In this document: one piece after another, positions 569-56,114 of the stretch
Layout: every line of letters begins with the position of its first letter
Position numbering within the stretch: position 1 is the stretch's first letter
Assembly (NCBI GenBank): GCA_003524305.1
Contig: DQHW01000029.1
Coordinates: forward strand, 4,913 to 68,912
DNA: 64,000 bases
From: Anaerolineaceae bacterium
GTDB taxonomy: Bacteria; Chloroflexota; Anaerolineae; Anaerolineales; Anaerolineaceae
Reading direction: 5' to 3'
Translations under genes and position numbers: made by a program
Notes under the pieces: model-generated
Told to the model about the DNA's origin: nothing
The model's database searches: none
The model's input: the letters and a program-made list of their open reading frames with translations, nothing else

Positions 569-578
569 TGACTATCCT

Positions 579-2880: not shown

Positions 2881-2927
2881 ATTAATATCTTCTTTCGATT
2901 ATTTCTAATAATTAGATTGTATGTCGA

Positions 2928-4616
2928 TTAAAGTTTCTTCACAATTCCCATCGTCACCAATAATTCAGTGCCATCGATCAGTTCTTGTTGGGTAGCCTGT
3001 GGACCTACTTCAAGAGTGCGATAGGCATACTCAGGGATGTACTTCGCTACCATTTCAAAATCTATATCGCCATGACCGGGTGTCTGATGATCAGTGATGC
3101 CTTTTACATCGTGCATGTGAATGGCAACAATGCGTTTTCCATACCGTTTTAACCATTCTTCATGGTCTTCAAGCCCTAACGCGGATAAGGTTTGGGCATG
3201 CCCCATGTCATATTGAAAACCATACCAAGGCTCATCACATAAATCCAAAAGCAAACCCATTTCATCGATTAGAGGGATATCGTAATATCTGTACCTGTTT
3301 TCAAGGCCGATGCTCATTTTGACTGATTTGGCATATTCAATGATCTCATGCAGACTTCTTTTAACTGCTTCAAGATGCGGACTTACTTTACTTTTGCGGT
3401 CTGCCACCATGGCATTCGTAAGTTCTTCGTATTCCTGTGAACCAAATAATCCTTGGTCATACATGGCGCGCAAACGTTTATCCATGGATCGATCGCCATT
3501 GACCTGGCCTGGGTGTAGAATGACAGAACTGGCTCCAAGTTTTACTGCAAGGTCAATCGTACGCAGGGTAACATCCACACCTTTCTTGCGGTTTGTTTCA
3601 TCAAGAGATGAAATCAACCAATCTTTTTTCTTGAGTTCATTCATGCTGAAATATGCCGGGCAGGGATCATGGACGTTGCCTGCGCGGAAATGGTTGAAAT
3701 CGATTTCTTCAAGCATGGCCGGAGAAATGGCATGGTTCAATTCAAGCCTTGCGAATCCCAATTGCCGACCAACTGCAAATGTTTCGCCAAAAGGCATTTT
3801 TTGACCCACATTCCACATGGTTGAGAGCGCCGCATCGTAAAGAAATTCTGGCTGCAAGGCTTTTACCTCAACCTGGGGGAGGTCTTTGTGATCAGGGAAA
3901 ATATCCAACAGCTCGGGCAAACGGCTGATTAAATGGTCGGGATTCATGGGCACGTTTTCTTTTTTCTCATGCTTCAATCCGGCTGCCTGGATGATAACCA
4001 CCTTCGAAAAACCGGCTTCTCGGGCGCCAACCACATCACGTGAAGGGCGGTCACCGATGTAAGCACACTCTTCAGGGCGAACACCAAGTGCTCTGGTGGC
4101 ATCCAGAAATAATGAAGGGTGGGGTTTACGTCTGCCGTAAACTGCAGACAGGATGACCGAAGAAAAGAGGTGGTTGATCCCATTTTCTTCGAGCAAAGCA
4201 GGCACTTCAACAGATGAGGTGGTGTTGCTGATGATGCATAATTTATATCCGCGTTCGGCTAGTGTCTTTATCGTTTCTACCGCATTTGGCAGCAATTTCT
4301 TCTTGCCTTTTGAGTTGCGCCAAAGCTGATTTAGCTTTATGGCATTTTCACGAATAAATTCGAGCCTGGATTGATCAGGATACATAAACCTGACCCATAA
4401 TTCCTGTTCAGTTAATTCGACTAAAGATTTTTTAGCCCATTTACGGTAATCCTTTTCACCGCGTGTGAGCCTGGTTTTGAGAGAATCGACCGTGCCCTCG
4501 TAGCCCAGGAATGAGCGTATTTCTTCTAAAATTATTATTTCTCGGCCGTCAACTCTCTCAGTAAAACGAAGAGTACCGCCGACATCAAATAGAATGGCAT
4601 TGATTGTCTGTTTCAT
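2928..4616 (-). CDS. Fusion protein: HAD-IA hydrolase domain + xylose-isomerase-like TIM barrel (paralog of 1219-2880)
   Basis: 562 aa. Motifs: LFDVGGTL, RRKPHP, IGDRPSRD, then ILHPG, GLENR, YDMGH, HMHD, TLEV. Colinear with the preceding fusion protein. Confidence 0.75.
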   Translation of the reverse strand: MKQTINAILFDVGGTLRFTERVDGREIIILEEIRSFLGYEGTVDSLKTRLTRGEKDYRKWAKKSLVELTEQELWVRFMYPDQSRLEFIRENAIKLNQLWRNSKGKKKLLPNAVETIKTLAERGYKLCIISNTTSSVEVPALLEENGINHLFSSVILSAVYGRRKPHPSLFLDATRALGVRPEECAYIGDRPSRDVVGAREAGFSKVVIIQAAGLKHEKKENVPMNPDHLISRLPELLDIFPDHKDLPQVEVKALQPEFLYDAALSTMWNVGQKMPFGETFAVGRQLGFARLELNHAISPAMLEEIDFNHFRAGNVHDPCPAYFSMNELKKKDWLISSLDETNRKKGVDVTLRTIDLAVKLGASSVILHPGQVNGDRSMDKRLRAMYDQGLFGSQEYEELTNAMVADRKSKVSPHLEAVKRSLHEIIEYAKSVKMSIGLENRYRYYDIPLIDEMGLLLDLCDEPWYGFQYDMGHAQTLSALGLEDHEEWLKRYGKRIVAIHMHDVKGITDHQTPGHGDIDFEMVAKYIPEYAYRTLEVGPQATQQELIDGTELLVTMGIVKKL

Positions 4617-6061
4617 TATTGTTTTGCCTGTCCAAACTCCCCAGACAATAAAGTTAATAATTCTGGAAAATTTTCAATATATTTATCTGCAACCGCTGAT
4701 TTTTCGTAATTGTAGGCGATGGTTTTGAACCCAACCTTGCGGGCTCCTTCAAGTTCTGTAGATTTATGCCCAACAAATACAGTTTCTTCCGGGTTGAGTC
4801 CAGCCTGTATGAGTGCTTCTTCATATAATATGGATGCAGGCTTGCGTACGCCCAAGTCTTTGGAACTGATAATGATATCCCATATGTGACCAAACCCTTC
4901 TTTTTCAAACCATTTGAGTTTGATTGTATAGGGAAGTGCGGTGTCGGTGATGATGCCCAGCAGGTAGCCCTGATCTTTTAACGCTTTTATTGTTTCAGGT
5001 ACACCGTCAAAAATAGCGACAGTATCATCATCCAGGTCAAGCGCAGCAACACCATCCTGAATCAGTTTTTCATCGGTAAAGCCGTAAAGTTCAACTGTTT
5101 GACGATAGTAATCTTGGCGATCTACTTTACCCTGGAAGGCAAGTTCTCGAACCTTTTTTGCTTTTTGATCCAATTCAGGTTCTGGATTGAAAATTTTACC
5201 TTTAAGAAAATTCTTAAAATTGAGGTGTTTTTGAGGGCGATAATACAAAATATCTCCAGCATCGAAGAAGACTGCTTTAATTTTTCGAGTCATCTCAACT
5301 TTTGCAAATATTTTGTCTTGTTCCATTTCTTTTTCGAGCAGTGGAATCAATTGCATCATATTATCAATCTCGGCGTCTGGAGTAGCCCCTTCATCAGGGT
5401 CTCCATCATCGAAGATATGTGAGATTTTTACTGAAAGTCTGAAACCCGCACGGTATGAACCCAGGATGTCGCGGTTGATCTTATCACCTACGTAGACGCA
5501 GCTTCCTGTGGGAACTTTTGCCAACCGGGCGGCATGATAAAAAATAGATGGATCTGGTTTGCGAAGTCCAAATTGGGATGTAAGAACGATTGGATCGAAA
5601 TAATCAATAATGCCGTATTGTGTAAGGTTATCAGGAACCTGGCGTTGGCTCTGACAATTGCTGATGATGCCCATGGAAAGTCCCATGGATTTAATAGCTG
5701 CCAGAACCTCTGGCATTTCTGGCCGCATTTCTCGATAATAAAAGGTTGTTTCATATAAATATGTCAGGTCTTCAGCGATTGAAGCAAGTGAATCATCAGG
5801 GAATTGATAATCTCTCAGTACAAATCTTTTCCAAACTTCGAAAGGTTTTAATTCAATCAGTGATGCGCGATTCCATTTGTGATATGACGAAATTCCACGT
5901 GAAACCAGGTCAGTCAAAGCCTCGTCAGTAAGTTCTAAGTTGATGTTTGCCCGTAGAAAAGTATCACGAAATTGTGGAATACTTTTTACTTTGAGTTCGC
6001 GATTTGTCCAAAAACTCTGGATTGTACCGCCCATATCGAAGAAGACTGTTTTAAGTTTCAT
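4616..6061 (-). CDS. Tandem double-HAD protein (two HAD-IA domains in one polypeptide)
   Basis: 481 aa. Domain 1: FFDMGGTI, ISNCQS, LRKPDP, VGDKINRD. Domain 2, from about residue 257: FFDAGDILY, IITDT, VRKPAS, VGHKSTELEGA. The stop codon overlaps the start of the downstream gene (TAATG at 4614-4618). Confidence 0.75.
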   Translation of the reverse strand: MKLKTVFFDMGGTIQSFWTNRELKVKSIPQFRDTFLRANINLELTDEALTDLVSRGISSYHKWNRASLIELKPFEVWKRFVLRDYQFPDDSLASIAEDLTYLYETTFYYREMRPEMPEVLAAIKSMGLSMGIISNCQSQRQVPDNLTQYGIIDYFDPIVLTSQFGLRKPDPSIFYHAARLAKVPTGSCVYVGDKINRDILGSYRAGFRLSVKISHIFDDGDPDEGATPDAEIDNMMQLIPLLEKEMEQDKIFAKVEMTRKIKAVFFDAGDILYYRPQKHLNFKNFLKGKIFNPEPELDQKAKKVRELAFQGKVDRQDYYRQTVELYGFTDEKLIQDGVAALDLDDDTVAIFDGVPETIKALKDQGYLLGIITDTALPYTIKLKWFEKEGFGHIWDIIISSKDLGVRKPASILYEEALIQAGLNPEETVFVGHKSTELEGARKVGFKTIAYNYEKSAVADKYIENFPELLTLLSGEFGQAKQ

Positions 6062-6190: not shown

Positions 6191-7417
6191 TTATTTTCCG
6201 AGGTTCAACAGATAGAAGTCACGAGCCTGAATCATGTTATCGTAAGCGTATTGCTCATCGATGAACCAGGTCATGGTCATCATTTCATCTAAAGGTTTCT
6301 GACCTTCAGGAACTTCATATGTGGAATCAGTGAAATAGGTGCCGAATTTAGCCCAAGGATCGCGGCCATCTGCTCCGACAACGAATTTAACCCACAGTTT
6401 TGCAGCATTGACGTGGGGAGCCTGGTTGAGGATGCCCAAGTAACTCTGGCTTTGAACACCAAGAGCAGGTTGGACGCCCCAACAGGGTTCGAATGCCAAG
6501 ACGCCATCCATGACATCAGCCATATTGGAGTAGGAGGTCAAGGCCATATAGCTGTCGGTCATGCCTGGGGTTGCGAAGGCTGAGTCGACTTCATCACCAC
6601 CGGGTTGAGGGATGGGGCCATTCTGAGCGAAACGTTTGAGCCATAACCAACCAGCATCGGGTGTGTCTGCATCCAGCTCAGGAGCGGATCCATAGAGGTC
6701 AACATAAGCAGCTTCTACTTCATCAGCGTGAGCAGCGATGGTGAGCAATTTGCTCAAGGTTGAGGCATCATTCAAAGGATCTTCGATGAAGAATTTGCCT
6801 TTCCATTCTGGTTGGGTAAGTTCCCAGATATTGGTGATGGGGCAGGTTTCGTTTAACTCAGAGTTGTATGCGAAAATGCTGGTACCCAAGCGTGCCATTA
6901 ACAAAGGCTGGGTGTATTCATCTGAAATCAGACCTGCGACACTGTCGGGGACAAAACGCCATACATATTGTTTGGGTAAGACGTTGCCGACGAGTTCTGC
7001 ACCACCACTGCTGAACCAGACATCACCAGTGAATGCACCGGCTTTTTGTTCTTCAATGGTTTTTTGTAAGACATCATCTCCACCGAGGTCGAAGGCCTGC
7101 ACGGCGATTCCGGGGTAGGCTTCCATGAATGCTTCAGCGGCTTTTTCAACCTTGGAACTGTTGGCATAGACCAAAAGGGTTCCTTCAGCTTTGGCTGCTT
7201 CTTCAATTGCGGCCCAATCTTGGGTGTCTGTCTGGTAGGGGCCGACTTCATTGTCTTTTGCCCATTGTTCAGCAGCGCTGAGAGGAGCATCGGCGGCTGC
7301 TTCGGTGGCTGCAGGGCTATCTACAGCAGGTGCTTCTGTTGCGGCAGGTGCTTTTGCACATGCGGCCAGGAAGCAAATCAAAACAATAATTGTTACAATC
7401 TTCACGAACGGTTTCAT
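6191..7417 (-). CDS. ABC transporter substrate-binding lipoprotein, FbpA/AfuA/PotD-like class (ligand unknown)
   Basis: 408 aa. It has a signal peptide with lipobox FLAAC followed by an Ala/Thr/Glu/Pro linker. The LLVYANSS...GDVWFSSGG pattern is typical of the iron / sugar-phosphate / polyamine SBP class. It is paired with a fused 12-TM permease and an ATPase. Confidence 0.65.
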   Translation of the reverse strand: MKPFVKIVTIIVLICFLAACAKAPAATEAPAVDSPAATEAAADAPLSAAEQWAKDNEVGPYQTDTQDWAAIEEAAKAEGTLLVYANSSKVEKAAEAFMEAYPGIAVQAFDLGGDDVLQKTIEEQKAGAFTGDVWFSSGGAELVGNVLPKQYVWRFVPDSVAGLISDEYTQPLLMARLGTSIFAYNSELNETCPITNIWELTQPEWKGKFFIEDPLNDASTLSKLLTIAAHADEVEAAYVDLYGSAPELDADTPDAGWLWLKRFAQNGPIPQPGGDEVDSAFATPGMTDSYMALTSYSNMADVMDGVLAFEPCWGVQPALGVQSQSYLGILNQAPHVNAAKLWVKFVVGADGRDPWAKFGTYFTDSTYEVPEGQKPLDEMMTMTWFIDEQYAYDNMIQARDFYLLNLGK

Positions 7418-7551
7418 TATCTTCTCCTTGTAGAATAAGAATCAAACACACTTCGTTACCCGATAATCCTAAGCTGGCTTTTTTGTTTGGTTGGGTTCCT
7501 CCTTGTACTGTTCTCTGAATAATTATTAATAGAGTAAAAAAACCTGCAAAA

Positions 7552-8634
7552 TTAACCGTTGACCAGTTTTCCACTGGCTTTATCATAGAGGTTGATGTCA
7601 TCTTTATGGAACTTCAACCAGATTTTTTGGTCCATTTTGATTTTTGAAACGCCCATTTCTCTGACGGTTAATTCGGTATCACCTTTACGCGCAATGATGG
7701 TGGTTTCAGCGCCAGAGGGTAAAACTGAATAGGCCTGGAATTCAATGGCGCCATCTTCCTGGTTTGCTGTAATACTGATATCTTCAGGGCGAATGCCTAC
7801 AACGACATCACCGGTCTGATCCAGGGTTTTTACAGGGATGTTAAATTTGCCAATGTCAACTGTATCTTTGCCAGAAACCCACCCCGGCATGAGATTGACT
7901 TTAGGGTTGCCAATGAAATCAGCGACAAACAAGGTGGCAGGGAAGTGGTAAACCTTGTCTGGCGTATCCATTTGCTGGATGACCCCTTCTTTCATGATGG
8001 CGATGTTGGTAGACATGGTCATTGCTTCAACCTGGTCATGAGTCACATAGACTGTGGTCGCGCCTGATACATGGTGCAGACGCTTGAGTTCAGTGCGCAT
8101 ATCCATTCTCAAACGTGCATCCAGGTTGGAAAGCGGTTCATCCATCAGAAAGACATGCGGTCGATATGCCAACATACGGGCCAGTGCAATACGCTGCTGC
8201 TGTCCGCCGCTCATTTCACGCGGGTAGCGGTCTTCATAACCAGACATCTGAACTTCAGAGAGAGATTCTTTAATTCTCCGGTCCATCTCTACTTTGGAGA
8301 GTTTTTGGATTTCTAAAGCAAATGCCAGGTTTTTGTATACATTCATATGTGGCCATAAGGCATAATTCTGAAATACAAGACCCAGATCACGCTTACCCGG
8401 CGCCAGGGAAATACCTTTGACGTGGGAATAAACCAGTTTATCGCCGATATAGATCTCGCCCTCATCGGGGTCTTCGAGCCCTGAGATACAGCGCAGAAGG
8501 GTGGTTTTTCCGCAGCCAGAGGGGCCGAGTAAGGTCAAAAAGGTGCCAGGCTCAACAGTCACGCTGACATTGTTGACCGCAACGACGTTGCCAAATTTTT
8601 TGGTGAGGTTTTTAACTGTGATTGTGGTTTCCAT
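7552..8634 (-). CDS. ABC transporter ATP-binding protein with C-terminal TOBE-like domain
   Basis: 360 aa. Walker A GPSGCGKTT, signature MSGGQQQR, Walker B VFLMDEPLS, H-loop YVTHD. Confidence 0.9.
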   Translation of the reverse strand: METTITVKNLTKKFGNVVAVNNVSVTVEPGTFLTLLGPSGCGKTTLLRCISGLEDPDEGEIYIGDKLVYSHVKGISLAPGKRDLGLVFQNYALWPHMNVYKNLAFALEIQKLSKVEMDRRIKESLSEVQMSGYEDRYPREMSGGQQQRIALARMLAYRPHVFLMDEPLSNLDARLRMDMRTELKRLHHVSGATTVYVTHDQVEAMTMSTNIAIMKEGVIQQMDTPDKVYHFPATLFVADFIGNPKVNLMPGWVSGKDTVDIGKFNIPVKTLDQTGDVVVGIRPEDISITANQEDGAIEFQAYSVLPSGAETTIIARKGDTELTVREMGVSKIKMDQKIWLKFHKDDINLYDKASGKLVNG

Positions 8635-8646
8635 GAAGTTCTCTCC

Positions 8647-10482
8647 TTACATTCCCAAGCCTTTTTTCAGGCTTCCGCCTTTGAAGCGGCTAATAATGAA
8701 GTTGCCGATCAAGACCAAAACGATCAAAACGATAATGACAGCGTTTGCCTGCTGTTCATTTCCATTTTCGATATAACGCATGGTCATACTTGCCAATACA
8801 GCCGTTGTAGGTGTAACCAGCAAGATAATCAGGGATAACTCTCTCATCGTGGTGATGAAGGTCATCAAGAATCCAGAGACAAAACCTGTGCTGGTCAATG
8901 GAAAGATGATCCTTTTGAAGCGCTGCCATGGAGAAGCGCCGGCGATCGCAGCCGCTTCTTCAAGTTCCTTACTCACTTGCAGCATGGCTGAAACACCACT
9001 GCGCGAAGAGTAAGGGATATGTTTGGCAACTGAAACAACCACCAAAAGGGCGAATGTGCCATAAAGAGCGGGGATTGGACCAACCGGTTTGGTAAACATC
9101 GAAATATAGACCGCACCAAATGCAATACCTGGAATCACATATGGGATGAACGCCAGTTGTTCAACAAATTTCGATAGACGTGTTCCCCTGCCTTTGACAA
9201 TGGCATATCCGAGGATGATTCCAAAGAAGGCAGTGAACAAAGCGGTAAACAAGGAAAGTTTTATGGAGTTCCATGCCCCCAGGTAGATTCTTGGGTTTAG
9301 AAGAACTCCTGGCTCACCGCTGTTTATCGAAATATCACCTTTTCCAATCCAATGCGCAAGGGTGAAATTACTCATACTGTAATCACCCGTACGCAGCATG
9401 AAAGTACTCCAGATCAATAGGGTAAGCGGAAGCACTGCAATGATGAATTGAAAAACAACTATGATCGCAGTGAATAATCCCTTGAAGTTACGAAGTTTCA
9501 TTTTTTGGGCCATAAATCCGCGGCCGCCAATGGTTTCATAACTTTTTCGCGTGCCCACAAGTTTTTGGTTGATCATGACGGTGACCATGGCAAAAAGAAT
9601 CAACACGATGGCCAAAACAAATCCGTCGCCATAATTGCCTATACCTGTGTTGGATCTCAACATGGTCGAAAGGGTATAGTATTGCACTGGAACACCCAAC
9701 ACATTCGGTCCACCGAAGGTGCCCATGGTTTTTGAGAAGGTCATGATAAAACCGGATGCAATCGCCGGCACAACCAATGGAAAGGTGATCTTGCGCATGA
9801 TCCGCCATCGGCCCGCACCTGACAACTCACCTGCTTCTTCGAGTGAACTGTCAATAGAAAGCAAAGCTGCCGCCACAAACAGGAAGAAGAAAGTGTAATA
9901 GTGCAGGGCGCTGCTAATGATGATCGGCACAGGACCGTAAGCCAGCCAATCAGGGGTGGGCTGGTTGGTTATAAACTCCAGCAAACCCGGTGTACCTCCC
10001 GATTTGGCATTTTTAAACAACACCTTCCATGCCATGGCGATTGTCCATGAAGGCATAATGTAAGGGACAGTGGCCAATGTGTTAATGATGCCTTTTCCAG
10101 GAACATCAGTGCGCACCACCAACCAGGCCATTAATCCGCCAATTGCCAACGAAAGCAAAGTGGCACCTAACGAAATGGTGAGCGAGTGCAACAGAGGCTC
10201 ATATGTCATGATCACGGCGATTTTGCTGGTAAGCATCCTCAGCCAGTGATACCAGGTGATGTCTCCGATATTTGCATCTTTAAGGACACGCAAATCACTA
10301 TCTGAAACTGTGATGGTTGTGACTACCATTCTGTAAAGCGGAATGATCACCATGTAGAACATCACGACAAGCATGATGAGCGACAAAATTACTTGTGGTC
10401 TTGAGATCCACCTTGAAAATCTTCGCAGATAGGCCAGGAACTTCTCTGCTTTTGTTTGATGGTCGAACGTACTAGCAGCCAT
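8647..10482 (-). CDS. ABC transporter permease, fused two-module (FbpB/AfuB-like)
   Basis: 611 aa and polytopic. Two EAA loops are present (LEEAGELSGAGRWRIMRKITFPL and LEEAAAIAGASPWQRFKRIIFPL), as in the fused permeases of the iron / sugar-phosphate ABC class. Confidence 0.8.
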   Translation of the reverse strand: MAASTFDHQTKAEKFLAYLRRFSRWISRPQVILSLIMLVVMFYMVIIPLYRMVVTTITVSDSDLRVLKDANIGDITWYHWLRMLTSKIAVIMTYEPLLHSLTISLGATLLSLAIGGLMAWLVVRTDVPGKGIINTLATVPYIMPSWTIAMAWKVLFKNAKSGGTPGLLEFITNQPTPDWLAYGPVPIIISSALHYYTFFFLFVAAALLSIDSSLEEAGELSGAGRWRIMRKITFPLVVPAIASGFIMTFSKTMGTFGGPNVLGVPVQYYTLSTMLRSNTGIGNYGDGFVLAIVLILFAMVTVMINQKLVGTRKSYETIGGRGFMAQKMKLRNFKGLFTAIIVVFQFIIAVLPLTLLIWSTFMLRTGDYSMSNFTLAHWIGKGDISINSGEPGVLLNPRIYLGAWNSIKLSLFTALFTAFFGIILGYAIVKGRGTRLSKFVEQLAFIPYVIPGIAFGAVYISMFTKPVGPIPALYGTFALLVVVSVAKHIPYSSRSGVSAMLQVSKELEEAAAIAGASPWQRFKRIIFPLTSTGFVSGFLMTFITTMRELSLIILLVTPTTAVLASMTMRYIENGNEQQANAVIIVLIVLVLIGNFIISRFKGGSLKKGLGM

Positions 10483-10607
10483 TCATTTTCTCCTATTCAA
10501 AGCAAATTACCAGCTTCGGATCACGTTCAACAAAATGACTTACAGAAAAACAATCCTTTTCTAACTACCTTTTATCTTGAAAATCCTCCTAAACAAAGTT
10601 TTGTAAC

Positions 10608-11492
10608 TCAGAGTTCCTCGGCATTAAATATTTTCAAACGTTCTCGTAAAGAATCCAATTTATCCAATGCGGGCAAAATCGTTTCTGGTTGTTGATCAGC
10701 CACAGACAGCAACAACGCATTGATAATGGTCATTGGCACAACCATGGAATGAAATTCAGAAACGGGACCGCGCTTTGCAGAAAGCACAACCCCAGCTTTA
10801 TCACCAATGAGCGTGTCTAAGGTGTCAGTGATCAGAATTATTTTGCAGCCAATTTCGCGAGCATAATCCAGCACGAGTTTCAAGGTGGGGTTAAGATTGT
10901 AGAAACAAATTACAAACAGAACGTCTTCAGGCGAAAGTGTGAGGAGTGAATCAAGTACTTCACGACCTGAGCTTTTAAGTGGGATCACCGCCTTGCCAAA
11001 ACGGCTCAACCTGATTTGCATTAGATCGACGAGCGTGATCGAAGGACCGGTTCCGAAAACAAAGAATCGGTTGTTTTCCATGGTTATTTTGACCGCTTGA
11101 TCGAACTGTTGCCGATCGACTGACTCTAATGCCTGGGTAAGATAATCAATTTCCATCATGGTCAGGCGTTCAAAAATATCACCTTTTTCAGGTACTTCTT
11201 TTAACCGTGAAAGGATTCTTGACGAGTGCGTCAACCTGGTTTTGAACGCAGCTTGAAACGATGCGCGAAGTGCAGGATAGGAGGGGTATCCTAAAGTGCG
11301 TGCAAACCGAACTACCGTCGCTTCGCTAATATCTAAATCTTCTGCGATTTCACTGGCAGAAAGGAAAGCCGCATCGTTTTGATTATTTCGCAAGAAATTA
11401 GCGATTTGTTTTTCACTCTTTGTCAGGGTGTCAAAATAATTGCTGACTTGTTGGTTGAAATCCAATTTAGGCATTGTCTCTTCAGAAGTCAT
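10608..11492 (-). CDS. RpiR/MurR-family transcriptional regulator (HTH_6 + SIS phosphosugar-binding domain)
   Basis: 294 aa. The N-terminal SEKQIANFL...SEIAEDLDISEATVVRFARTLGY is an RpiR HTH. The C-terminal FVFGTGPS...ILITD is SIS-like. Confidence 0.8.
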   Translation of the reverse strand: MTSEETMPKLDFNQQVSNYFDTLTKSEKQIANFLRNNQNDAAFLSASEIAEDLDISEATVVRFARTLGYPSYPALRASFQAAFKTRLTHSSRILSRLKEVPEKGDIFERLTMMEIDYLTQALESVDRQQFDQAVKITMENNRFFVFGTGPSITLVDLMQIRLSRFGKAVIPLKSSGREVLDSLLTLSPEDVLFVICFYNLNPTLKLVLDYAREIGCKIILITDTLDTLIGDKAGVVLSAKRGPVSEFHSMVVPMTIINALLLSVADQQPETILPALDKLDSLRERLKIFNAEEL

Positions 11493-11529
11493 ATTTTCTC
11501 CGATCAGGTTTTTGATTTAACAAATACCT

Positions 11530-12735
11530 TTAAGCGCCGTATTTGGCAAGTCGAAATGCATTCGCCAGGGCAATTGGCATTACTTCTTTGGCTGGTAGAA
11601 TACCCAGGCTGCCTTTTAAGCAATTTCGTTCTCCAAAACTTGAAATTCCATCAGGTCGCACATAATTTGAGAACAACAGGGTGGGCACTGGATGCCACGA
11701 ATGAAACTTCAACGCCGCAGGTGAGGAATGATCTCCGCTGACAATGACCACATCAGGATTCAAGGCTGTCAACCTCGGAATCAAAGCATCTACTTCTTCA
11801 ATCACTTTTACCTTGCGGTCGAAATCGCCGTCTTCGCCGGCAGTATCCGTTTGTTTGACGTGTATATAGAAGAAATCGAAGTTCTGCCAGTTTTGTTCTA
11901 GAGCAGCAAATTCATCTTCGATTGATGTGCCTTGAAATTGAATAATTTCCATGCCAATCAGGCGTGAGACGCCCTTATACATTCCATTTACTGCAATGGC
12001 TGCCGGGTTAAGTTTAAAGATTTCTTGATAAGTTGGGATGACTGGTAACTTGTCGAAACCGCGTAACAAGATGCCGTTGGCATGTTTTTCACCGGCAAGG
12101 GCATTTGTAGCTTTGTTGATAAATTGATTAACGATTTCAGCCGTACGGATTGAAGCATCATCCATCCCTTGAGTTAACAGAGGTTTGACGCCGTTTTTTT
12201 GTGGGTCCGTTTCGCTGACATTGGCGCCCAAACCAGCACCTCTGATCACGAAGGCAAAACGGTGTTCTTTTACCGGTTCCACGAAAAATTCAACACCATC
12301 CATCTTAATCGTATTGAGAATTGCAGCAATTTTCTTGGCTTCAATGGTTGCCAATCTACCTGCACGTCGATCTACGAGTACACCTTTATCATCCAGCAGG
12401 CAGAAATTTCCTCTTGCCGCGATATCGTCTGGGCGGAGATCGAAATCAACGCCTAAAGCTTCCAATGCGCCGCGGCCAATCTCATGTTGAATGGGGTCGT
12501 AGCCGAAAATTCCCAGGTGGCCTGGACCGCTGCCGGGGGTGATTCCATAGGCAGCAGGAACAGTCAAACCAAGAGCTGAGAGAGAGGCAAGCTTATCAAG
12601 GTTGGGGGTATTGGCTGTTTCCAATTCGGTCAATCCGCCTGGCTGCATGGGCAATCCTCCAAGCCCGTCAAGGATGAGCATGACGATCTTGGTTTTTGCC
12701 GGTATGGTCATTCGACGTAAGAAGTCTAAATCCAT
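11530..12735 (-). CDS. ApgM-type (archaeal-form) cofactor-independent phosphoglycerate-mutase-family protein, alkaline-phosphatase superfamily
   Basis: 401 aa. Motifs: VMLILDGLGG, TPGSGPGHLGIFGYDP, VSGDHSSP, HSWHPVP. This is the metal-ligand and nucleophile pattern of the COG3635 family. The substrate is not inferable from sequence. Confidence 0.7.
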   Translation of the reverse strand: MDLDFLRRMTIPAKTKIVMLILDGLGGLPMQPGGLTELETANTPNLDKLASLSALGLTVPAAYGITPGSGPGHLGIFGYDPIQHEIGRGALEALGVDFDLRPDDIAARGNFCLLDDKGVLVDRRAGRLATIEAKKIAAILNTIKMDGVEFFVEPVKEHRFAFVIRGAGLGANVSETDPQKNGVKPLLTQGMDDASIRTAEIVNQFINKATNALAGEKHANGILLRGFDKLPVIPTYQEIFKLNPAAIAVNGMYKGVSRLIGMEIIQFQGTSIEDEFAALEQNWQNFDFFYIHVKQTDTAGEDGDFDRKVKVIEEVDALIPRLTALNPDVVIVSGDHSSPAALKFHSWHPVPTLLFSNYVRPDGISSFGERNCLKGSLGILPAKEVMPIALANAFRLAKYGA

Positions 12736-12756: not shown

Positions 12757-14343
12757 TTATTTAATAAAACTGGGTCTGCCTTTACCAAAAACAAATGCGA
12801 TGTAGGCTTTCTGAGTCTTTGAATAATTTCCATCACGATCAAGTGCGATGCCTCGCCCGATTCCCGACACAATTTGACCAATGCCAATTTCATTGACCTT
12901 TTCGTCCATCATTTCAAGCAAGGAGGGGGCGCTGCCGGGCTCGGTGCTTCTGCCGTCAAAGATCATGTGAAGGCATACATCTTCAAGTCCGCGTTCTTTT
13001 GCCATTTTTAGAACCGCCAATGGGTAATCAATCGAACCATGAGAACTTTTGATGGTCATCAAACCGATGAGATGAAGTTTGCTTTTATTATTAATGGCGT
13101 GATCTATGGCTTGAAGAATGGTTGGGTTGGAATAGAAACTGCCATCTTTCATGGCTGCATCCAAGCGTACATCATCCTGCAAAACAACGCGGCCGGCGCC
13201 GATATTCATGTGTCCGGCTTCTGAATTGCCGGCTTTTCCTGCTTTCAAACCAACGGCTTCACCCGAGGCTTCAAGCGTGCTTTTTGCTTGAGTGGCTAAT
13301 AATTGATCCCAATAGGGAGTTTTGGCCAAATAGATGGGGTTTGTTTCATCTTTTTTTCCTATGCCCCATCCATCCAGAATGATCAACAGGACTTTACGAT
13401 TTTCCCCAAAGTGATGATCAAGGGCTAGATTGCTGCCAGTCATGGTTGGAGGTTGGTTAAGCCCCATGGCTTTTAGAATTGTCGGGGCGATATCACCAAG
13501 TTTTCCATTTTTCAAAGAAATCGGTGAAGTAGTGTCGGGATCAAGCAGAATGAAATCCACAAGGTTGGTGGTGTGCGAGACATTCGGGGTGCCGTCTTCA
13601 TTAAATAGCTCTTCAAGATTGCCGTGATCTGCCGTGATGAGAATGACATACCCTGCATCTTTGGCAGCTTCAACTACTTTGCTCAGATTACGATCGACAA
13701 CCTCAGCGCATTTGATTTTTGCTTCGCGATTCGAGGTGTGGCCGATCACGTCTCCATTGGCAAAATTGGTGACAATCAGGTGATCTTTTTGTTCAATTCG
13801 CTCGATGACCTTATCCGCAACTTCATCCAGTTTTAACTCGGGCACCTTGTCATAAGAGATGCCTTTGGGTGAAGGAACACGGATATCCATTTCACCAGGG
13901 TAAGGGGCATTGTTACCGCCATTTAAGAAGAAGGTCACATGGGCAAATTTTTCTGATTCAGAGATTCGAGCCTGGTTCAACCCTGCTTTGCTGACCACTT
14001 CACCAAGTGTTTCTTGCATTTTGACTGGTGCAAAAGCAACTGGCAGGTCTTTAAATTTATCGTGATATAAAGTCAAAATGACAAACGGAAGGTTTTTAAA
14101 AGGAATTTTCTCAAATTGATTGAAATTTGGTTCGGTGAAGGCTTCTGTAAGTTGAATTTCTCGTTCGCCTCTGCGGCAGCAAAAGATGACGGCATCGTTC
14201 TCTTGGATTTCTCCAATGGCATTACCCTGGTTATCAACCAAGACAACAGGTTCAAAAGAATAGTCTGTCTGTCCTTCAGAATACATTTCTCTGACGGTAC
14301 CAGCCAGAACACTTCCGCTATTTTTAATCCGATGTAAGACCAT
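12757..14343 (-). CDS. Circularly permuted GpmI (iPGM)-like phosphomutase
   Basis: 528 aa. Residues 1-306 align to the C-terminal half of canonical GpmI: IFCCRRGEREI ~ NFRADRAREI, SESEKFAHVTFFLNGG, NGDVIGHT, ITADHGN, SHTTNLV, GKLGDIAPTIL, MTGSNL. Residues 317-528 align to the canonical N-terminal half: VLLIILDGWG, AGNSEAGHMNIGAGR, HLIGLMT, FDGRST, IGRGIALDRD. Confidence 0.8.
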   Translation of the reverse strand: MVLHRIKNSGSVLAGTVREMYSEGQTDYSFEPVVLVDNQGNAIGEIQENDAVIFCCRRGEREIQLTEAFTEPNFNQFEKIPFKNLPFVILTLYHDKFKDLPVAFAPVKMQETLGEVVSKAGLNQARISESEKFAHVTFFLNGGNNAPYPGEMDIRVPSPKGISYDKVPELKLDEVADKVIERIEQKDHLIVTNFANGDVIGHTSNREAKIKCAEVVDRNLSKVVEAAKDAGYVILITADHGNLEELFNEDGTPNVSHTTNLVDFILLDPDTTSPISLKNGKLGDIAPTILKAMGLNQPPTMTGSNLALDHHFGENRKVLLIILDGWGIGKKDETNPIYLAKTPYWDQLLATQAKSTLEASGEAVGLKAGKAGNSEAGHMNIGAGRVVLQDDVRLDAAMKDGSFYSNPTILQAIDHAINNKSKLHLIGLMTIKSSHGSIDYPLAVLKMAKERGLEDVCLHMIFDGRSTEPGSAPSLLEMMDEKVNEIGIGQIVSGIGRGIALDRDGNYSKTQKAYIAFVFGKGRPSFIK

Positions 14344-14364: not shown

Positions 14365-15117
14365 CTAGGCAGCTATTGGCGGAAAAATAGAAAGGAGATC
14401 GGTAAGGCGCTCAATCACCATGTCTGGTGTTTGTTCCGGGGTTAGCTCCATCTCTTTATCTTTTTTATCAGGCATGATGATGATCATGCCAAAACCGGCA
14501 TTGCGGGTGCCTTCAACATCACGGGCAAAGTTGTCACCTACATATACACATTCTTCAGGGGTAACTTCAGCCCGGTTTGCTGCTTCAAGATAGATGGCTG
14601 CATCAGGTTTACGTATTCCAAAAACGGAAGAAAGCATCACGGATTTGAAGTACTTAGCCAGACCGTCTTCTTCCAGCCATTCGGGGATCTCACGTTCAGT
14701 GATCACGTTGCTTATGATTCCCAAAACATAACCGCGTTTATAGAGCTCGATGATGGTTTCAGCCCCGCCTTCAGCAACGACGCGTCTTCCCATGGATTGT
14801 CGAAACTGAAAAGTGAGCGGCGCTGACAAAGACGCTATTGTTTCAGCGGGATAATCGGGCAAAAGCCAGCGCGTCCACAGTTCTTTTTCTGAGGCTTCAC
14901 GCATGTTGTCAAAAGCCCATTTGCGATAAATCTTATAACGGCGGTCCAGTTCAGCAACAAAACTGTCGGGATCTTCTTGGGTGCCAACGAGTTTGGCAAT
15001 TTCGAGTCGTGCAGCCGCCCGGTGCGGCTCTTCTTTAAGAAGAATGCGCAGGGTGTTGCCCACATCCAGAAAAATGGCTTTCATGTTGGCGATATTTACC
15101 GAATTGACAGCATCCAT
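14365..15117 (-). CDS. HAD-IA family hydrolase
   Basis: 250 aa. Motifs: FLDVGNTL, IISNV, IRKPDA, VGDNFARD. The start could instead be the internal Met at 15084. Confidence 0.75.
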   Translation of the reverse strand: MDAVNSVNIANMKAIFLDVGNTLRILLKEEPHRAAARLEIAKLVGTQEDPDSFVAELDRRYKIYRKWAFDNMREASEKELWTRWLLPDYPAETIASLSAPLTFQFRQSMGRRVVAEGGAETIIELYKRGYVLGIISNVITEREIPEWLEEDGLAKYFKSVMLSSVFGIRKPDAAIYLEAANRAEVTPEECVYVGDNFARDVEGTRNAGFGMIIIMPDKKDKEMELTPEQTPDMVIERLTDLLSIFPPIAA

Positions 15118-15122
15118 TTTGA

Positions 15123-15854
15123 TTAATTCCTGGCTGGAAAGATATCCAGCAGTTGAGAAATTTCCGTGATGTGATAATCAATAACAAAATCACTGGATTG
15201 AGGTTCTTTTTCGAGGGTTTTTGGCTCGTCAATAACGATCATCATGCCATAACCGGCGACCTGGGTGCCTTCGACGTCGCGGATGGGGTTGTCGCCTACA
15301 TAGGCGCAATTGACCGGCTCAACGCCAATTTCTCTGGATGCCAGCCAATAGATTTCAGGGTCTGGTTTGCGCAGGCCGACTTTAGATGAGAGGACGACAG
15401 GGTTGAAGATGCCAGTTAATCCATCAGATTCAATCCAGTCGGGGATTTCGGTTTCAGTAATAGTGTTGGCAATGATGCCGATCTTGTAACCGCGTTTGTG
15501 CAGTTCAAGGATGGTTGCCTTCACATCGTGACGTGGCACGCGGATGCCGTCGTGATCTCTCCAAAGGCGGGTGAGTTTTCCGGCCAGGGGGGCAATTTTT
15601 TCAACAGGGTATCCCGGTAGAAGGTGAATCGACCAAAGATCTTTTTCGGAGGATTCTTTCAATGATTTTTTTGATGCTTTACGATAAGTCTTCCAGCGTT
15701 CTTCCAAACCGGCAAAGAAAACTTCTTCAGATTCGGTTGTGCCAACTAATGTCATCAAGTCTTGTTTGGCTCTTGCTTGAAACTCAGGATCTTCCAAGAC
15801 GATGCGCAGCGTGTTGCCAACATCCAGGAAAATGGCTTCGATATTAGGATTCAT
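15123..15854 (-). CDS. HAD-IA family hydrolase (paralog of 14365-15117)
   Basis: Motifs: FLDVGNTL, IIANT, LRKPDP, VGDNPIRD. I prefer ATG at 15854, preceded by AAGGGA, over the track start at 15899. Confidence 0.75.
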   Translation of the reverse strand: MNPNIEAIFLDVGNTLRIVLEDPEFQARAKQDLMTLVGTTESEEVFFAGLEERWKTYRKASKKSLKESSEKDLWSIHLLPGYPVEKIAPLAGKLTRLWRDHDGIRVPRHDVKATILELHKRGYKIGIIANTITETEIPDWIESDGLTGIFNPVVLSSKVGLRKPDPEIYWLASREIGVEPVNCAYVGDNPIRDVEGTQVAGYGMMIVIDEPKTLEKEPQSSDFVIDYHITEISQLLDIFPARN

Positions 15855-15962
15855 GGAATTTCCCTTTCGATCTGTAGAATGGACAGTCAAGAAAAACACT
15901 GAGAATAAATGACGAATTCAATTGCAAAAATAAAAAATGTGAATTTGTGCTTACAAATGTAG

Positions 15963-16368: not shown

Positions 16369-18684
16369 ATGAATATTTTAGGTCTTGGATTAAGGCATGG
16401 GCTGAGTAATTTTGAGCAAATCGCCATCGTCGCCGTTTTGGTGATTTCTTGTGCCAGCCTGTTTTATGCCTGGATTTTGAGGAAATCTGTTCTCAAAAAA
16501 GACAAGGGGACCGAAAAGATGCAAGAGGTCTGGGATGCCATCCGCGTCGGGGCAGAGGGCTATCTCTCCAAACAGTTAAAAACAATTCTGCCTGCTATTG
16601 GCATTCTCTTTGTGGCTTTGTTTCTCTCTGTCTATGTGGTTCCCCCAAGCTCCGAAGCATTGGTAGAATTTCCCCCGGAGAAATTTAATACACAACTGAT
16701 CATTGCAATTGGACGCGCGATTGCATTTGTTTTGGGAGCATCGTTTTCTTTAATCGTCGGTCAATTGGGCATGCGCATGGCCATCCAGGCCAGTGTGCGC
16801 TCTGCATCTGCTGCCAGACGCGAATTCAACGAAGCACTTTCAATTGCCTATTATGCAGGTGCTTATACCGGCATGCTCACTGATGGGTTAGGACTGCTTG
16901 GCGGAACTGTCATTTTCATCATCTTCGGCAAAGCCTCCCCGGATGCCCTGCTGGGATTCGGTTTTGGCGGCACCTTGCTTGCCTTGTTCATGCGCGTTGG
17001 TGGAGGTATTTACACCAAAGCGGCAGACGTTGGCGCAGATCTTGTTGGCAAGGTTGAAAAAGACATTCCAGAAGACGACCCCCGCAACGCCGCCGTAATT
17101 GCCGACCTGGTTGGCGACAACGTGGGTGACTGCGCCGGCATGGCCGCTGATATCTTTGAGAGCTATGAAGTGACCATTGTCTCCGCTTTGATCCTCGGTC
17201 TGGCACTTTGGAGCACGGATCAAAACTTGAAATGGATTGTCTATCCGTTAATCGTCCGTGGAATCGGTGTGATCAGTTCAATCCTGGGGACATTTGCCGT
17301 ACCGATCTGGGAAAAATTTCCGATCAAATTCTTGCGCGCCCACGATGCTGAAGAATCCATGTTCAGGTCATATGAGATCTCCAGCATTAACACCATTATT
17401 TGGTCCTTCGTGGTTGCCATTTTGTACGCTCATGATTGGAAGCTGGCAGTATTAACCACCATCGGTGTGGGGCTGGCGGTTGCTTTCAACCCCCTGACTT
17501 CTTACTTTACGTCAACCAAATATGCACCGGTTCGTGAAATTGTAGACAGCACCAAAACCGGGCCTGCCACCACCATCCTCTCCGGTTTGGCTATTGGCAT
17601 GGAATCAAGTGTCTGGGCACTGCTGGTGATCGCAGTTGCTTTCTTTGCATCCTTGATGCTGTATACCGGGTTTGAATCAATCTACGTGCTTTACGGCATC
17701 GCCATGGTGGGTATCGGTATGCTCAGTCAAACGGGTAATAACGTGGCCATGGATTCATTTGGTCCGATCTCAGACAATGCCAATGGCATTGGAGAAATGG
17801 CCTGGCACGGTCAGACGGATGAAGTGACCCTAAAAGCGCGCCAGACCATGGCCGATCTTGATGCAGTGGGCAATACCACCAAAGCCATCACCAAGGGTGT
17901 CGCCATTGCGTCTGCAGTGATCGCTGCTGTCAGCTTGTTCTCATCCTTCATCACGGATGTGGGCAACGTCCAAAGAGGACTTGTTGCCAGCGGTATGAAA
18001 ATTGAAATCCTGGAATCGATCAGGGTGTCTGACACGAAGGTGTTCATCGGATTTTTACTGGGTGGTGCTTTACCCTGGTTGTTCAGCGCTTTGAATATCA
18101 AAGCTGTCAGCCGGGCTGCCACCAAGATTGTTGAAGAAGTTCGCCGCCAGTTCAAAATCCCTGGCATCATGGAAGGCACCAAGAAACCAGATTATGCAGA
18201 AGTGGTTGCCATTTCGACCGGCTCTGCTCAAAAAGAACTGCTACCTCTGGCTGCCATTGCTGTTTTGATGCCGCTGGTGGTGGGCATGGTTTTACAGGTT
18301 GAAGCGCTAGGCGGCTTTCTCGCCGGCGTCATCTTGAGCGGACAGTTGTTGGCGGTCTTCATGTCTAATGCCGGCGGTGCCTGGGATAATGCCAAGAAAT
18401 CTGTTGAAGATCAGGCGCGTGACATAATTGCCAACACCGGCAAGGGTTCTGACCGCCACAAAGCCGCCGTGGTGGGTGATACAGTCGGCGATCCGCTAAA
18501 AGATGCTGCGGGACCTGCCTTGAACCCGATGATCAAGGTGGTAAATCTCGTCAGCCTGATTGCTGCTCCTGTGATCGTCCGCTACCAGAACCTGGGCGTG
18601 GTCGGCTGGGTGATTGTGGCTCTACTGCTTGCCGCCATCGTGTGGGCAATCGCTGTCAGCAAGAAACCGGCAATTTTGAAATAA
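16369..18684 (+). CDS. hppA: Membrane-bound proton-translocating pyrophosphatase, K+-independent type
   Basis: 771 aa and polytopic. Motifs: DVGADLVGKVE, DNVGDCAGMAADIFESY, GDTVGDP. GNTTKAITKG at 17869-17898 carries the Lys/Thr signature of K+-independent H+-PPases. RBS AGGAGG lies upstream. Confidence 0.9.
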   Translation: MNILGLGLRHGLSNFEQIAIVAVLVISCASLFYAWILRKSVLKKDKGTEKMQEVWDAIRVGAEGYLSKQLKTILPAIGILFVALFLSVYVVPPSSEALVEFPPEKFNTQLIIAIGRAIAFVLGASFSLIVGQLGMRMAIQASVRSASAARREFNEALSIAYYAGAYTGMLTDGLGLLGGTVIFIIFGKASPDALLGFGFGGTLLALFMRVGGGIYTKAADVGADLVGKVEKDIPEDDPRNAAVIADLVGDNVGDCAGMAADIFESYEVTIVSALILGLALWSTDQNLKWIVYPLIVRGIGVISSILGTFAVPIWEKFPIKFLRAHDAEESMFRSYEISSINTIIWSFVVAILYAHDWKLAVLTTIGVGLAVAFNPLTSYFTSTKYAPVREIVDSTKTGPATTILSGLAIGMESSVWALLVIAVAFFASLMLYTGFESIYVLYGIAMVGIGMLSQTGNNVAMDSFGPISDNANGIGEMAWHGQTDEVTLKARQTMADLDAVGNTTKAITKGVAIASAVIAAVSLFSSFITDVGNVQRGLVASGMKIEILESIRVSDTKVFIGFLLGGALPWLFSALNIKAVSRAATKIVEEVRRQFKIPGIMEGTKKPDYAEVVAISTGSAQKELLPLAAIAVLMPLVVGMVLQVEALGGFLAGVILSGQLLAVFMSNAGGAWDNAKKSVEDQARDIIANTGKGSDRHKAAVVGDTVGDPLKDAAGPALNPMIKVVNLVSLIAAPVIVRYQNLGVVGWVIVALLLAAIVWAIAVSKKPAILK

Positions 18685-18695
18685 CGCGGAACCCC

Positions 18696-18730
18696 TGATA
18701 AGGATCCGAAGTTTATTCGGATCCTTATCA
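18696..18730 (+). terminator. Stem-loop after hppA (15-bp stem TGATAAGGATCCGAA / TTCGGATCCTTATCA)
   Basis: Perfect inverted repeat with a 5-nt loop, 12 nt after the hppA stop. No clear U-tract follows. Confidence 0.5.
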
Positions 18731-18766
18731 ATAAAGTCACAATAGTCACATATTGTTTGAACAGTA

Positions 18767-18812
18767 TTGACTTTCAAATTCTTGTTTGTTATATTTAATG
18801 CACACGTGTGCG
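18767..18812 (+). promoter_or_regulatory. Promoter (TTGACT-17-TATATT) plus near-palindrome TGCACACGTGTGCG, a candidate autoregulatory LacI-family operator
   Basis: TTGACT at 18767-18772, TATATT at 18790-18795, operator-like element at 18799-18812. It lies immediately upstream of the LacI-family gene. Confidence 0.6.
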
Positions 18813-18832
18813 TTAAATATAAGGACAATCAT

Positions 18833-19864
18833 ATGCCAGTCACAATAAAAGACATTGCCAAGAAAGCCGGTGTTTCACATACAACAGTATCTCGTGCATT
18901 GAACGGAAACCGTTCAATCCCCGAGAAAACGACGCTTACGATTTGTGAACTCGCCAAAGAAATGGGATATCTTCCCAGTGCCGCGGCCAGGGGATTGAAA
19001 ACCAATAAATCTCATGCAATCGGCGTCATTGTCAGCCGCATTGATAATCCCTATTTTGGAGAAATCCTTCAAGGGATTGAAGAAATTCTACAAAAAACCG
19101 GATACAGTTTGTTTGTTGCTTCTTCTCACCTGGAATTTGACAGCGAAAAGAATATTGTGCAGGCATTTGCAGAACACCGTGTGGATGGAGTGATCATTTG
19201 CTCGGTCACTTTTGGCTCGAAACATGCCGAGTTCTTAAAGAAATACGGCATGCCGATAGTGGTCATCAATAACCAATCACCAGAAGATTATCAATGTTCC
19301 ATCGCTAATGATGACGTGGATGGCGCACGCAATGTCACTCGTCATCTCATCACTCTTGGGCATACAGAAATAGCATTTTTAGGCAACGCCAGTGCGGATC
19401 GCATCAACGAAGACCGTTTGTTGGGTTTTCGTGCCGAAATCCAAAGAGCATCACTTCAAGTGAATGAAAAGTTCATTGTTAATTGCCCCGCCAGCGAGAT
19501 TGAAGATGGCGTACATGGCATGCAAGCATTGTTGAAATCTGAACCAAGACCTACTGCAGTCTTTTGTTTCAATGACCTGATGGCTATCGGTGCCCTAAGC
19601 GTGTTAAATACCAACAAGATTGCTGTTCCAGAAGAAATTTCCATCGCCGGATTTGATAACATCCCATATTCAGCATATACATGCCCTCCTTTAACGACAT
19701 TTGATCAACCCAAGCGCATGATCGGTGCAGAGGCGGCTCAAATGTTATTGGGCATTATCGATAATCCAGACAGCTCAAATACCACAGTACCGGTAACTCA
19801 TATGATGCGCGGACATTTATTGATCCGCGGTTCGACCAACGAAGTGCAAAAGAGGAGTTTTTAA
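18833..19864 (+). CDS. LacI-family transcriptional regulator (probable inositol-cluster repressor)
   Basis: The protein begins MPVTIKDIAKKAGVSHTTVSRALNG, a LacI HTH, and has a periplasmic-binding-protein-like C-terminal domain. ATG at 18833 is preceded by AAGGA. The track's TTG start at 18767 would lie inside the promoter. Confidence 0.85.
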   Translation: MPVTIKDIAKKAGVSHTTVSRALNGNRSIPEKTTLTICELAKEMGYLPSAAARGLKTNKSHAIGVIVSRIDNPYFGEILQGIEEILQKTGYSLFVASSHLEFDSEKNIVQAFAEHRVDGVIICSVTFGSKHAEFLKKYGMPIVVINNQSPEDYQCSIANDDVDGARNVTRHLITLGHTEIAFLGNASADRINEDRLLGFRAEIQRASLQVNEKFIVNCPASEIEDGVHGMQALLKSEPRPTAVFCFNDLMAIGALSVLNTNKIAVPEEISIAGFDNIPYSAYTCPPLTTFDQPKRMIGAEAAQMLLGIIDNPDSSNTTVPVTHMMRGHLLIRGSTNEVQKRSF

Positions 19865-50916: not shown

Positions 50917-50989
50917 TGAAAAAACCTCATTATTTTTTCAAACCACTAATAATTTTCACATACTTATTTTATATTCGTTTGCAATTTCT

Positions 50990-51832: not shown

Positions 51833-51858
51833 GGGTACGATAAAAATCCTTGAAATCG

Positions 51859-52944: not shown

Positions 52945-53017
52945 CTTTTATCTCACTTATTTTGATACTTATATCGAAGCTGTTAGTGAACAAATCAATG
53001 TCGCTGAAAAGGTTTCA

Positions 53018-53836: not shown

Positions 53837-53837
53837 T

Positions 53838-54653: not shown

Positions 54654-54707
54654 TTATTGGACTGATTTTTAAATATTACTTTAGTGAAATGAAAATCATT
54701 AGGATTC

Positions 54708-56036: not shown

Positions 56037-56114
56037 GATTATTTCTCAACAGCATTACCAACCATCCTCAACCAAATGTTCAAAAGCAGCATTATGGAAG
56101 CTCAATTATTTGGT

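Follow-up and report, generated by a model that had tools for sequence, protein, structure and literature searches.

Does a gene that encodes the two halves of a cofactor-independent phosphoglycerate mutase (iPGM, or GpmI) in reversed order specify a genuinely rearranged enzyme, and does such an enzyme still work in glycolysis? The question is raised by a minus-strand open reading frame (ORF) in a 64,000-nucleotide stretch of an Anaerolineaceae bacterium genome (contig DQHW01000029.1, positions 4,913 to 68,912; the whole stretch is referred to here as the window). iPGM is a textbook two-domain enzyme and a drug target. Here we find that the ORF, which we refer to as the permuted gene, is a genuine circular permutant of the two-domain iPGM fold with an 8-residue linker, a conclusion that leaves us very little doubt. 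What the permuted enzyme does is a separate matter; we put the probability that its role is non-glycolytic at roughly 0.55.

The canonical linear order of GpmI (phosphatase part A, transferase, phosphatase part B) is not kept in the window protein, which instead runs from the second half of the transferase domain through phosphatase part B, a linker and phosphatase part A to the first half of the transferase domain (Table 1). The two-domain composition itself, consisting of an alkaline-phosphatase-like metal domain and a phosphotransferase domain, is present according to Pfam, the Protein Data Bank (PDB), AlphaFold2 and Foldseek. In particular, phmmer aligned query residues 316-522 with residues 4-210 of the Bacillus stearothermophilus iPGM (PDB 1EJJ; 1e-43) and query residues 17-307 with residues 220-509 of the same protein (2.5e-63), and the iPGMs of the PDB overall matched the window protein at 4e-110. 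With Escherichia coli GpmM as the target, BLASTP placed query residues 316-522 on residues 6-212 and query residues 21-306 on residues 227-510. Two separate segments also made up the match to the family model TIGR01307, in which residues 13-306 correspond to profile positions 213-503, and the matches to Pfam Metalloenzyme (4.3e-65) and iPGM_N (1.5e-47); the last three quarters of the Metalloenzyme profile (positions 64-251) fell on residues 105-296, and positions 2-130 of the 217 in iPGM_N fell on residues 395-523. Both parent halves are present once each, complete and without overlap, with their order reversed within one ORF. That ORF has an ATG start with GGAG 8 nt upstream, and begins 21 nt past the preceding gene.

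The original prediction, which had been made from the sequence and had named alignment with GpmI as a check, claimed a circular permutation in a single intact ORF; the swapped, two-stretch phmmer, BLASTP, TIGR01307 and Pfam matches bear this out, the motifs it quoted are all present in the 528-residue ORF, and the linker is where it had been placed (nucleotides ~13399-13422). The new termini had been put near E. coli residue 235, and this has to be corrected: BLASTP puts the break at ~212-226. The termini fall in a loop of the transferase domain (B. stearothermophilus ~210-220, E. coli ~212-226). Because they have moved into this loop, the phosphatase domain is now a contiguous insert (residues ~105-394) and it is the transferase domain that is split; there are still two hinges in the permutant. 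Among homologues the linker is variable in sequence and 8-12 residues long.

The permuted form is not confined to the window. The best 120 homologues in a collection of 5.8 billion proteins showed 63-87% identity over 96-100% of the query, and all 120 were colinear with it in a single local alignment. A HMMER scan of 1.84 billion cluster representatives added ~20 more divergent permuted proteins, down to 38% identity, which matched in one stretch whereas canonical iPGMs matched in two. Calls of permuted or canonical order rest on separate searches with each half of the protein; by this means 140 of the 270 proteins retrieved were permuted, 126 were canonical and 4 were fragments. A scan of GTDB species representatives located ~50 permuted loci, mostly in Anaerolineae, with others in Oscillibacter, Dysosmobacter, a Clostridium sp., Enterocloster lavalensis and [Clostridium] asparagiforme DSM 15981 (a complete genome). 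Note that the number of residues matched in this genome scan is the union of the matched segments; in seven canonical control loci from the same scan (L056-L062) the N-half preceded the C-half, whereas in all of the permuted loci the order was reversed. (The control loci, from Bacteroidia, Patescibacteria, Oleidesulfovibrio and Clostridiales DTU053, had been candidates for permuted members as distant "colinear" matches, and were rejected because they proved canonical in order.) Moreover, two divergent permuted members share 90%-identity clusters with proteins from a Pseudomonadota metagenome-assembled genome (MAG) and from Ca. Desulfofervidus auxilii. Orthologues with the same permutation, a search for which had been suggested in the original prediction, therefore amount to at least 140 proteins and ~50 species-level genomes, and the misassembled junction that it had offered as a possible refutation is excluded by the recurrence of the architecture across at least 140 independent sequences.

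When an alignment of 42 permuted proteins was used as input, AlphaFold2 returned a model with a mean predicted local distance difference test score (pLDDT) of 94.2 and a predicted template modelling (TM) score of 0.86, with the linker also modelled confidently (pLDDT ~94-96). Matches of the model in Foldseek at E <= 0.001 were exclusively to iPGM structures, over ~273-300 columns and with TM scores of 0.43-0.45. Because the aligner depends on sequence order, each such match covers one half only; the half-length alignment of the model is consistent with a permutation and falls short of a full superposition.

The permuted sequences were then rearranged to the canonical order so that they could be aligned with 1EJJ and 115 canonical proteins (B. 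stearothermophilus numbering is used for canonical positions). All 36 permuted sequences keep D12, S62, H66, H123, R185, R191, R261, R264, K336, D403, H407, D444, H445 and H462, and R153 is kept in 33 of the 36; the conserved catalytic residues are likewise invariant in the ~115 canonical sequences. In the window protein the Ser nucleophile and binuclear metal site of GpmI are present as D324, S374, D198, H202, D239, H240 and H257. Judged by these residues, the catalytic apparatus is complete, comprising Ser374 as the nucleophile and seven metal ligands for two Mn/Zn sites, which is the ligand set described previously (PMC5382265; for the domains and metal site of iPGM in general see PMC5382265 and PMC8113725). 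The window protein scored 501.9 bits against TIGR01307 (cut-off 330.65), summed over two stretches, and 397.6 bits against NF003897, which is below the equivalog cut-off of 862. It is not a member of the ApgM family, as it scored 34.5 bits against TIGR00306 (cut-off 320) and had no match to PF10143, the PhosphMutase insert domain.

Eight positions, H123, R153, D154, R185, R191, R261, R264 and K336, we take to be those that bind phosphoglycerate in 1EJJ and 1O98. Seven of these are kept in the window protein; D154 is Ser, and the adjoining positions are remodelled. An Asp occupies position 154 in 112 of the 115 canonical sequences, whereas 28 of the 36 permuted ones have Ser. Pocket changes of this kind had been pointed out in the original prediction, and the substitutions are real and conserved within a clade. 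One of them had been read too strongly: since R261 and R264 are both kept, the change of RADRAR to RRGERE touches flanking residues and leaves both substrate arginines intact.

The permuted proteins are of two types. Type I takes in the window protein together with each of the 120 close homologues and 12 divergent representatives; it has xKSSHGS where canonical enzymes have SDGGVHSH (GGV to KSS), and likewise DGRS for DGRD, GRGIALDRD for GRYYAMDRD (YY to GI) and FCCRRGERE for FFNFRxDRAR, so that on balance the pocket has lost one acidic residue (Asp154) and gained Lys120 and Arg260. Type I was monophyletic in 98.5% of 200 neighbour-joining (NJ) bootstraps, and its substitutions are fixed down to ~40% identity at positions that are near-invariant in canonical enzymes. 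Type II is rarer (P0135, P0137, P0140 and a domain inside the 5027-residue protein P0226). Its break point and the length of its linker are those of type I, but its pocket, unlike that of type I, is the canonical one (GVHSH, DGRD, GRYYAMDRD, FNFRxDRA), and the two types were not grouped in NJ trees (1% bootstrap). These trees are compatible both with a single origin of the permutation and with two. In the one informative type II locus (L067), the gene for P0140 overlaps the stop codon of pgi and lies among housekeeping genes. Thus, as a type II enzyme with a canonical pocket adjoins pgi, the permuted topology is compatible with a glycolytic role. (Note that in P0226, from a 15.6 kb Logan contig, the permuted iPGM domain with its canonical pocket occupies residues 3855-4371, and the remainder consists of repeated hydrophobic segments and other regions; P0226 may be either a genuine protein of many domains or an artefact of gene calling.)

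In the window the permuted gene sits in a minus-strand run with gaps of 5-134 nt, in the order HAD, HAD, permuted gene, ApgM-type phosphoglycerate mutase (PGM), RpiR regulator, double permease, ATPase and binding protein; the run continues with a double-HAD protein, two HAD/TIM-barrel fusions, a PhoU_div gene and a PiT-like gene. The order from the first HAD gene to the HAD/TIM-barrel proteins is kept in ~45 Anaerolineae loci at 59-86% identity, and the upstream HAD pair is conserved in these ~45 loci as well as in Oscillibacter and Dysosmobacter. The ApgM-type gene adjoins the permuted gene in most Anaerolineae loci, whereas the Firmicutes and Pseudomonadota-like loci lack it; its product could be either the glycolytic PGM or a partner enzyme. 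At the window edge the last ORF of the run, whose N-terminus reads MEPLLIVLIIFALAFDFLNGVHDSSNVVAT..., is presumably of PiT type, an assignment made by motif only, and the presence of a PiT-like gene at the end of the run fits phosphate release by the locus.

Outside Anaerolineae the permuted gene keeps related company (P0123, P0127 and P0137 were left out of this comparison because their contigs are too short). In Oscillibacter (L043) it lies with a HAD gene, orthologous permease, ATPase and binding-protein genes and a further HAD gene, and there is no ApgM gene. One divergent locus (L065), whose protein clusters at 90% identity with the Pseudomonadota MAG protein, has the orthologous importer and a gene for a glycerophosphodiester phosphodiesterase (GDPD); a second (L068) has LysR, binding-protein, permease, ATPase and permuted genes; and a third (L069) has GDPD, LysR, the permuted gene and the importer, with a second permuted paralogue beside another GDPD gene. 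In [Clostridium] asparagiforme (L044) an RpiR regulator and a TctC/TctA transporter are next to the type I gene. On the metagenomic contig of L069, 6 kb separates the two type I paralogues (10001-11548 and 17522-19093), one of which shares an operon with the orthologous ABC importer under the LysR regulator. A related Anaerolineae locus (L001) carries extra kinase genes within or beside the cluster, at 7026-7895 and 12829-14025 (for a PfkB-family sugar kinase and a PRK/uridine-kinase-family protein, the latter gene lying between ApgM and RpiR) as well as a second ABC importer, all of which are absent from the window; these extra genes may hint at the chemistry of the pathway. In a Chloroflexia MAG (L054, 8400-21500) each gene of the conserved cluster was matched only as several short frame-shifted pieces; indel errors left uncorrected in long reads seem a better explanation than true pseudogenes.

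A profile of the importer's binding protein matched AfuA in the PDB (4R72-75) at 2.4e-15 over its full length, and AfuA binds hexose and heptose phosphates (PMC4546632). The profile also matched a pyridoxal-phosphate binder (6WCE, P5PA; PMC8427247) and a 2-aminoethylphosphonate binder (4R6Y). When the binding protein, a HAD protein and a HAD-TIM fusion were each searched against the PDB as single sequences, no clue to the ligand emerged.

We favour the reading that the type I enzyme is a Mn-dependent phosphomutase of the phosphoserine type that would act on an imported anionic organophosphate and not as the housekeeping PGM. That the substrate is an imported organophosphate is suggested by the fixed remodelling of the pocket across a deep clade, together with the linkage to an importer, phosphoesterases and regulators, the adjacent ApgM gene and the occurrence of paralogues. 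Moreover, as an ApgM-type PGM that scores above its equivalog cut-off is encoded 21 nt away, a second plain PGM at the locus would be redundant. In the pathway that we envisage, the importer would bring in an anionic organophosphate, and the type I enzyme would isomerise it, or otherwise transfer its phosphate, by phosphoryl transfer via a phosphoserine intermediate with the acceptor re-oriented in the transferase domain; this step would form part of uptake and dephosphorylation in conjunction with the HAD and GDPD esterases. The retained arginines and the added positive charge suggest an acidic substrate that is possibly more anionic than 3-phosphoglycerate (3-PG), one possibility being a phosphoglycerate-like acid with more negative charge than 3-PG. 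The suggestion in the original prediction that the substrate may not be 2- or 3-phosphoglycerate is thus strengthened by the fixed clade substitutions and the non-glycolytic context, short of being proven. (Isomerisation of glycerol phosphates (G1P, G2P or G3P), prompted by the link to GDPD, was considered and set aside because all of the arginines that bind carboxylate and phosphate are kept and the pocket gains positive charge.)

A broader version of this reading is more tentative. Type I sources are Chloroflexota and Bacillota genomes, and divergent members have relatives, at the level of 90%-identity clusters, in Pseudomonadota and Ca. Desulfofervidus MAGs. Type I might accordingly be a cross-phylum phosphomutase family with a new substrate, for which a bisphosphorylated or dicarboxylic glycerate analogue, more anionic than 3-PG, is a candidate; with the importer and the HAD and GDPD proteins it might make up an unrecognised pathway by which an environmental organophosphate is taken up and used, and the permutation may have accompanied the change of function. 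On balance we think this somewhat less likely to be right than wrong.

Several points weigh against a non-glycolytic role. Every known phosphoglycerate-contacting residue but Asp154 is kept and the TIGR01307 equivalog cut-off is passed, so plain 2PG/3PG mutase activity stays quite possible. The best PDB matches of the importer's binding protein are labelled iron-binding proteins. Gene neighbourhood is indirect evidence of function, and the substituted residues are placed near the substrate solely by their adjacency in sequence to known ligand-binding residues. The PGM inventory of the hosts is limited to the locus, with its neighbouring ApgM gene. The roles of individual pocket residues are presumably those seen in the B. 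stearothermophilus structures (Jedrzejas et al. 2000).

The strongest alternative is that type I proteins are the ordinary 2-PG/3-PG mutases of their hosts, the permutation being neutral and the pocket differences reflecting lineage drift. The conservation of all catalytic and nearly all substrate-binding residues (seven of eight), the TIGR01307 score and the type II permutant that overlaps pgi in L067 all agree with it, and because the seven substrate residues persist we regard it as credible, if rather unlikely. Drift does not readily account for type I substitutions that are fixed across a deep clade at positions near-invariant in canonical enzymes. Nor does an ordinary PGM sit well with neighbours that, in the genomes of Chloroflexota and Bacillota and the divergent metagenomic contigs examined, are transporters, HAD or GDPD proteins and regulators with no glycolysis genes among them, with the ApgM-type PGM next door, with two type I paralogues within 8 kb in L069, or with the failure to reach the NF003897 equivalog cut-off.

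It is less probable still, and in our estimation improbable, that the type I enzyme is a hydrolase, that is, a phosphatase or phosphodiesterase that frees phosphate from the imported compound alongside the HAD enzymes. Its phosphatase domain does belong to the alkaline-phosphatase superfamily, with weak matches to Sulfatase, Phosphodiest and PglZ, the enzyme lacks Asp154, and linked to its gene are those for HAD and GDPD esterases and the PhoU_div/PiT pair; however, the whole transferase domain and its arginines are kept, which would be unexpected for a simple hydrolase, and dedicated phosphatases are already abundant at the locus. The notion that the gene is an assembly chimera or the decaying remnant (pseudogene) of a tandem duplication, for which the sole argument is that permutations are thought to arise via tandem duplication and which has no sequence support, can be dismissed, since many independent assemblies, and isolate genomes too, carry the single intact ORF in identical or colinear form (at least 140 colinear sequences, one of them from a complete isolate genome), no segment is duplicated, the catalytic residues are conserved and the model is confident throughout.

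Table 1 Features of the permuted gene and its neighbourhood in the window
Feature	Coordinates	Strand	Remarks
Permuted iPGM-like ORF, complete	12757-14343	-	528 aa plus stop; 100% identical to P0001 (Anaerolineaceae MAG)
Transferase domain, second half (residues 1-104; B. stearothermophilus ~211-310)	14032-14343	-	FCCRRGERE; R58 (=R261), R61 (=R264)
Phosphatase domain part B (residues 105-307)	13423-14031	-	Metalloenzyme stretch; K132 (=K336), D198/H202 (=D403/H407), D239/H240 (=D444/H445), H257 (=H462); ends MTGSNL, canonical C-terminus
Linker LDHHFGEN (residues 308-315), ancestral C-terminus to ancestral N-terminus	13399-13422	-	Unaligned between PDB matches
Phosphatase domain part A (residues 316-394)	13162-13398	-	D324 (=D12), nucleophile S374 (=S62), H378 (=H66)
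Transferase domain, first half (residues 395-528)	12760-13161	-	iPGM_N stretch 395-523; H435 (=H123) in KSSHGS; R465-S466 (=R153-D154 to S); R497/R503 (=R185/R191) in GRGIALDRD
Two HAD-IA hydrolase genes, directly upstream	15123-15899 and 14365-15117	-	
ApgM-type (archaeal-form) cofactor-independent PGM homologue, 21 nt downstream	11530-12735	-	NF003160 572 bits (cut-off 468); PDB 2ZKT 3.6e-71
RpiR-family regulator (HTH_6 and sugar-phosphate-binding SIS domain)	10608-11492	-	
AfuABC/Fbp-like importer	6191-10482	-	Fused double permease 8647-10482, ATPase 7552-8634, binding protein 6191-7417
Double-HAD protein	4616-6061	-	HAD domains
Two HAD + xylose-isomerase-like TIM-barrel fusion proteins	2928-4616 and 1219-2880	-	
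PhoU_div/DUF47 gene, then start of PiT-type phosphate transporter leaving the window	579-1199; run end 1-1199	-	

Other features of the window may be noted. The six HAD-IA domains encoded on the minus strand at 1219-6061 and 14365-15899 belong to one TIGR02253-like subfamily, with AP_endonuc_2 domains in the fusions; none of the six reaches an equivalog cut-off, and this expansion of paralogues is kept in related Anaerolineae loci. On the plus strand at 16369-18684, divergent from the HAD/mutase run, is a gene for a membrane H+-translocating pyrophosphatase (771 aa, 1.3e-237) followed by a LacI-type regulator, and the same neighbour is found in the two closest loci (L006 and L010). The stretch at ~50000-58000 has a GC content of 0.33-0.37, compared with 0.42-0.51 elsewhere in the window, and may be a horizontally acquired island.

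A natural and widespread permutant indicates that the iPGM fold tolerates a reversal of which domain is inserted into which, and offers a ready-made natural experiment on how the open/closed catalytic cycle depends on chain connectivity through the two hinges. There are also consequences for annotation. Databases name the permuted proteins as ordinary GpmI, and thousands of permuted genes have been annotated as such automatically because their TIGR01307 score passes the cut-off; we found no dedicated Pfam or NCBIfam model for the permuted form. The name may be wrong for the type I clade, and if so glycolysis would be mis-reconstructed in Anaerolineae and in some gut Firmicutes. Both anaerobic digesters and the gut harbour organisms with a type I locus in abundance, and the conserved linkage of the gene to an AfuABC-like importer, many HAD paralogues and GDPD suggests that they scavenge organophosphates by a pathway as yet uncharacterised.

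How, then, does the system compare with those already known? The window importer shares the layout of AfuABC importer loci (a fused double permease, a MalK/UgpC-like ATPase and an Fbp-type binding protein) but has low sequence identity to them, and to our knowledge no AfuABC locus has been described with an iPGM-like gene. ApgM and the phosphopentomutase DeoB have the metal-binding phosphatase core in common with the permuted protein (weak matches, residues ~168-298) but a different inserted domain, and the permuted protein scores far below the cut-offs of both families (34.5 versus 320 and 40.4 versus 256, respectively); the true ApgM homologue is the product of the neighbouring gene. In the open-access full-text literature searched we found no description of a permuted iPGM/GpmI or of any permuted enzyme of the alkaline-phosphatase superfamily. 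The closest known relatives are the canonical GpmI/iPGM enzymes (TIGR01307; 1EJJ, 1O98 and E. coli GpmM), which have the same two domains with 36-45% identity over both halves, and which share the Ser nucleophile, the seven metal ligands, His123, Arg153, Arg185, Arg191, Arg261, Arg264 and Lys336. These enzymes have the canonical order and a contiguous transferase domain, whereas the window protein is permuted and it is the phosphatase domain that is contiguous; the window protein also differs in its changed pocket (Asp154 to Ser, KSSHGS, CRRGERE and GRGIAL) and in its non-glycolytic gene context. Thus, circular permutation of enzymes and the iPGM fold are both already known, whereas the inverted nesting of the domains appears to be new, as probably are the specificity of the type I enzyme and the pathway in which it takes part.

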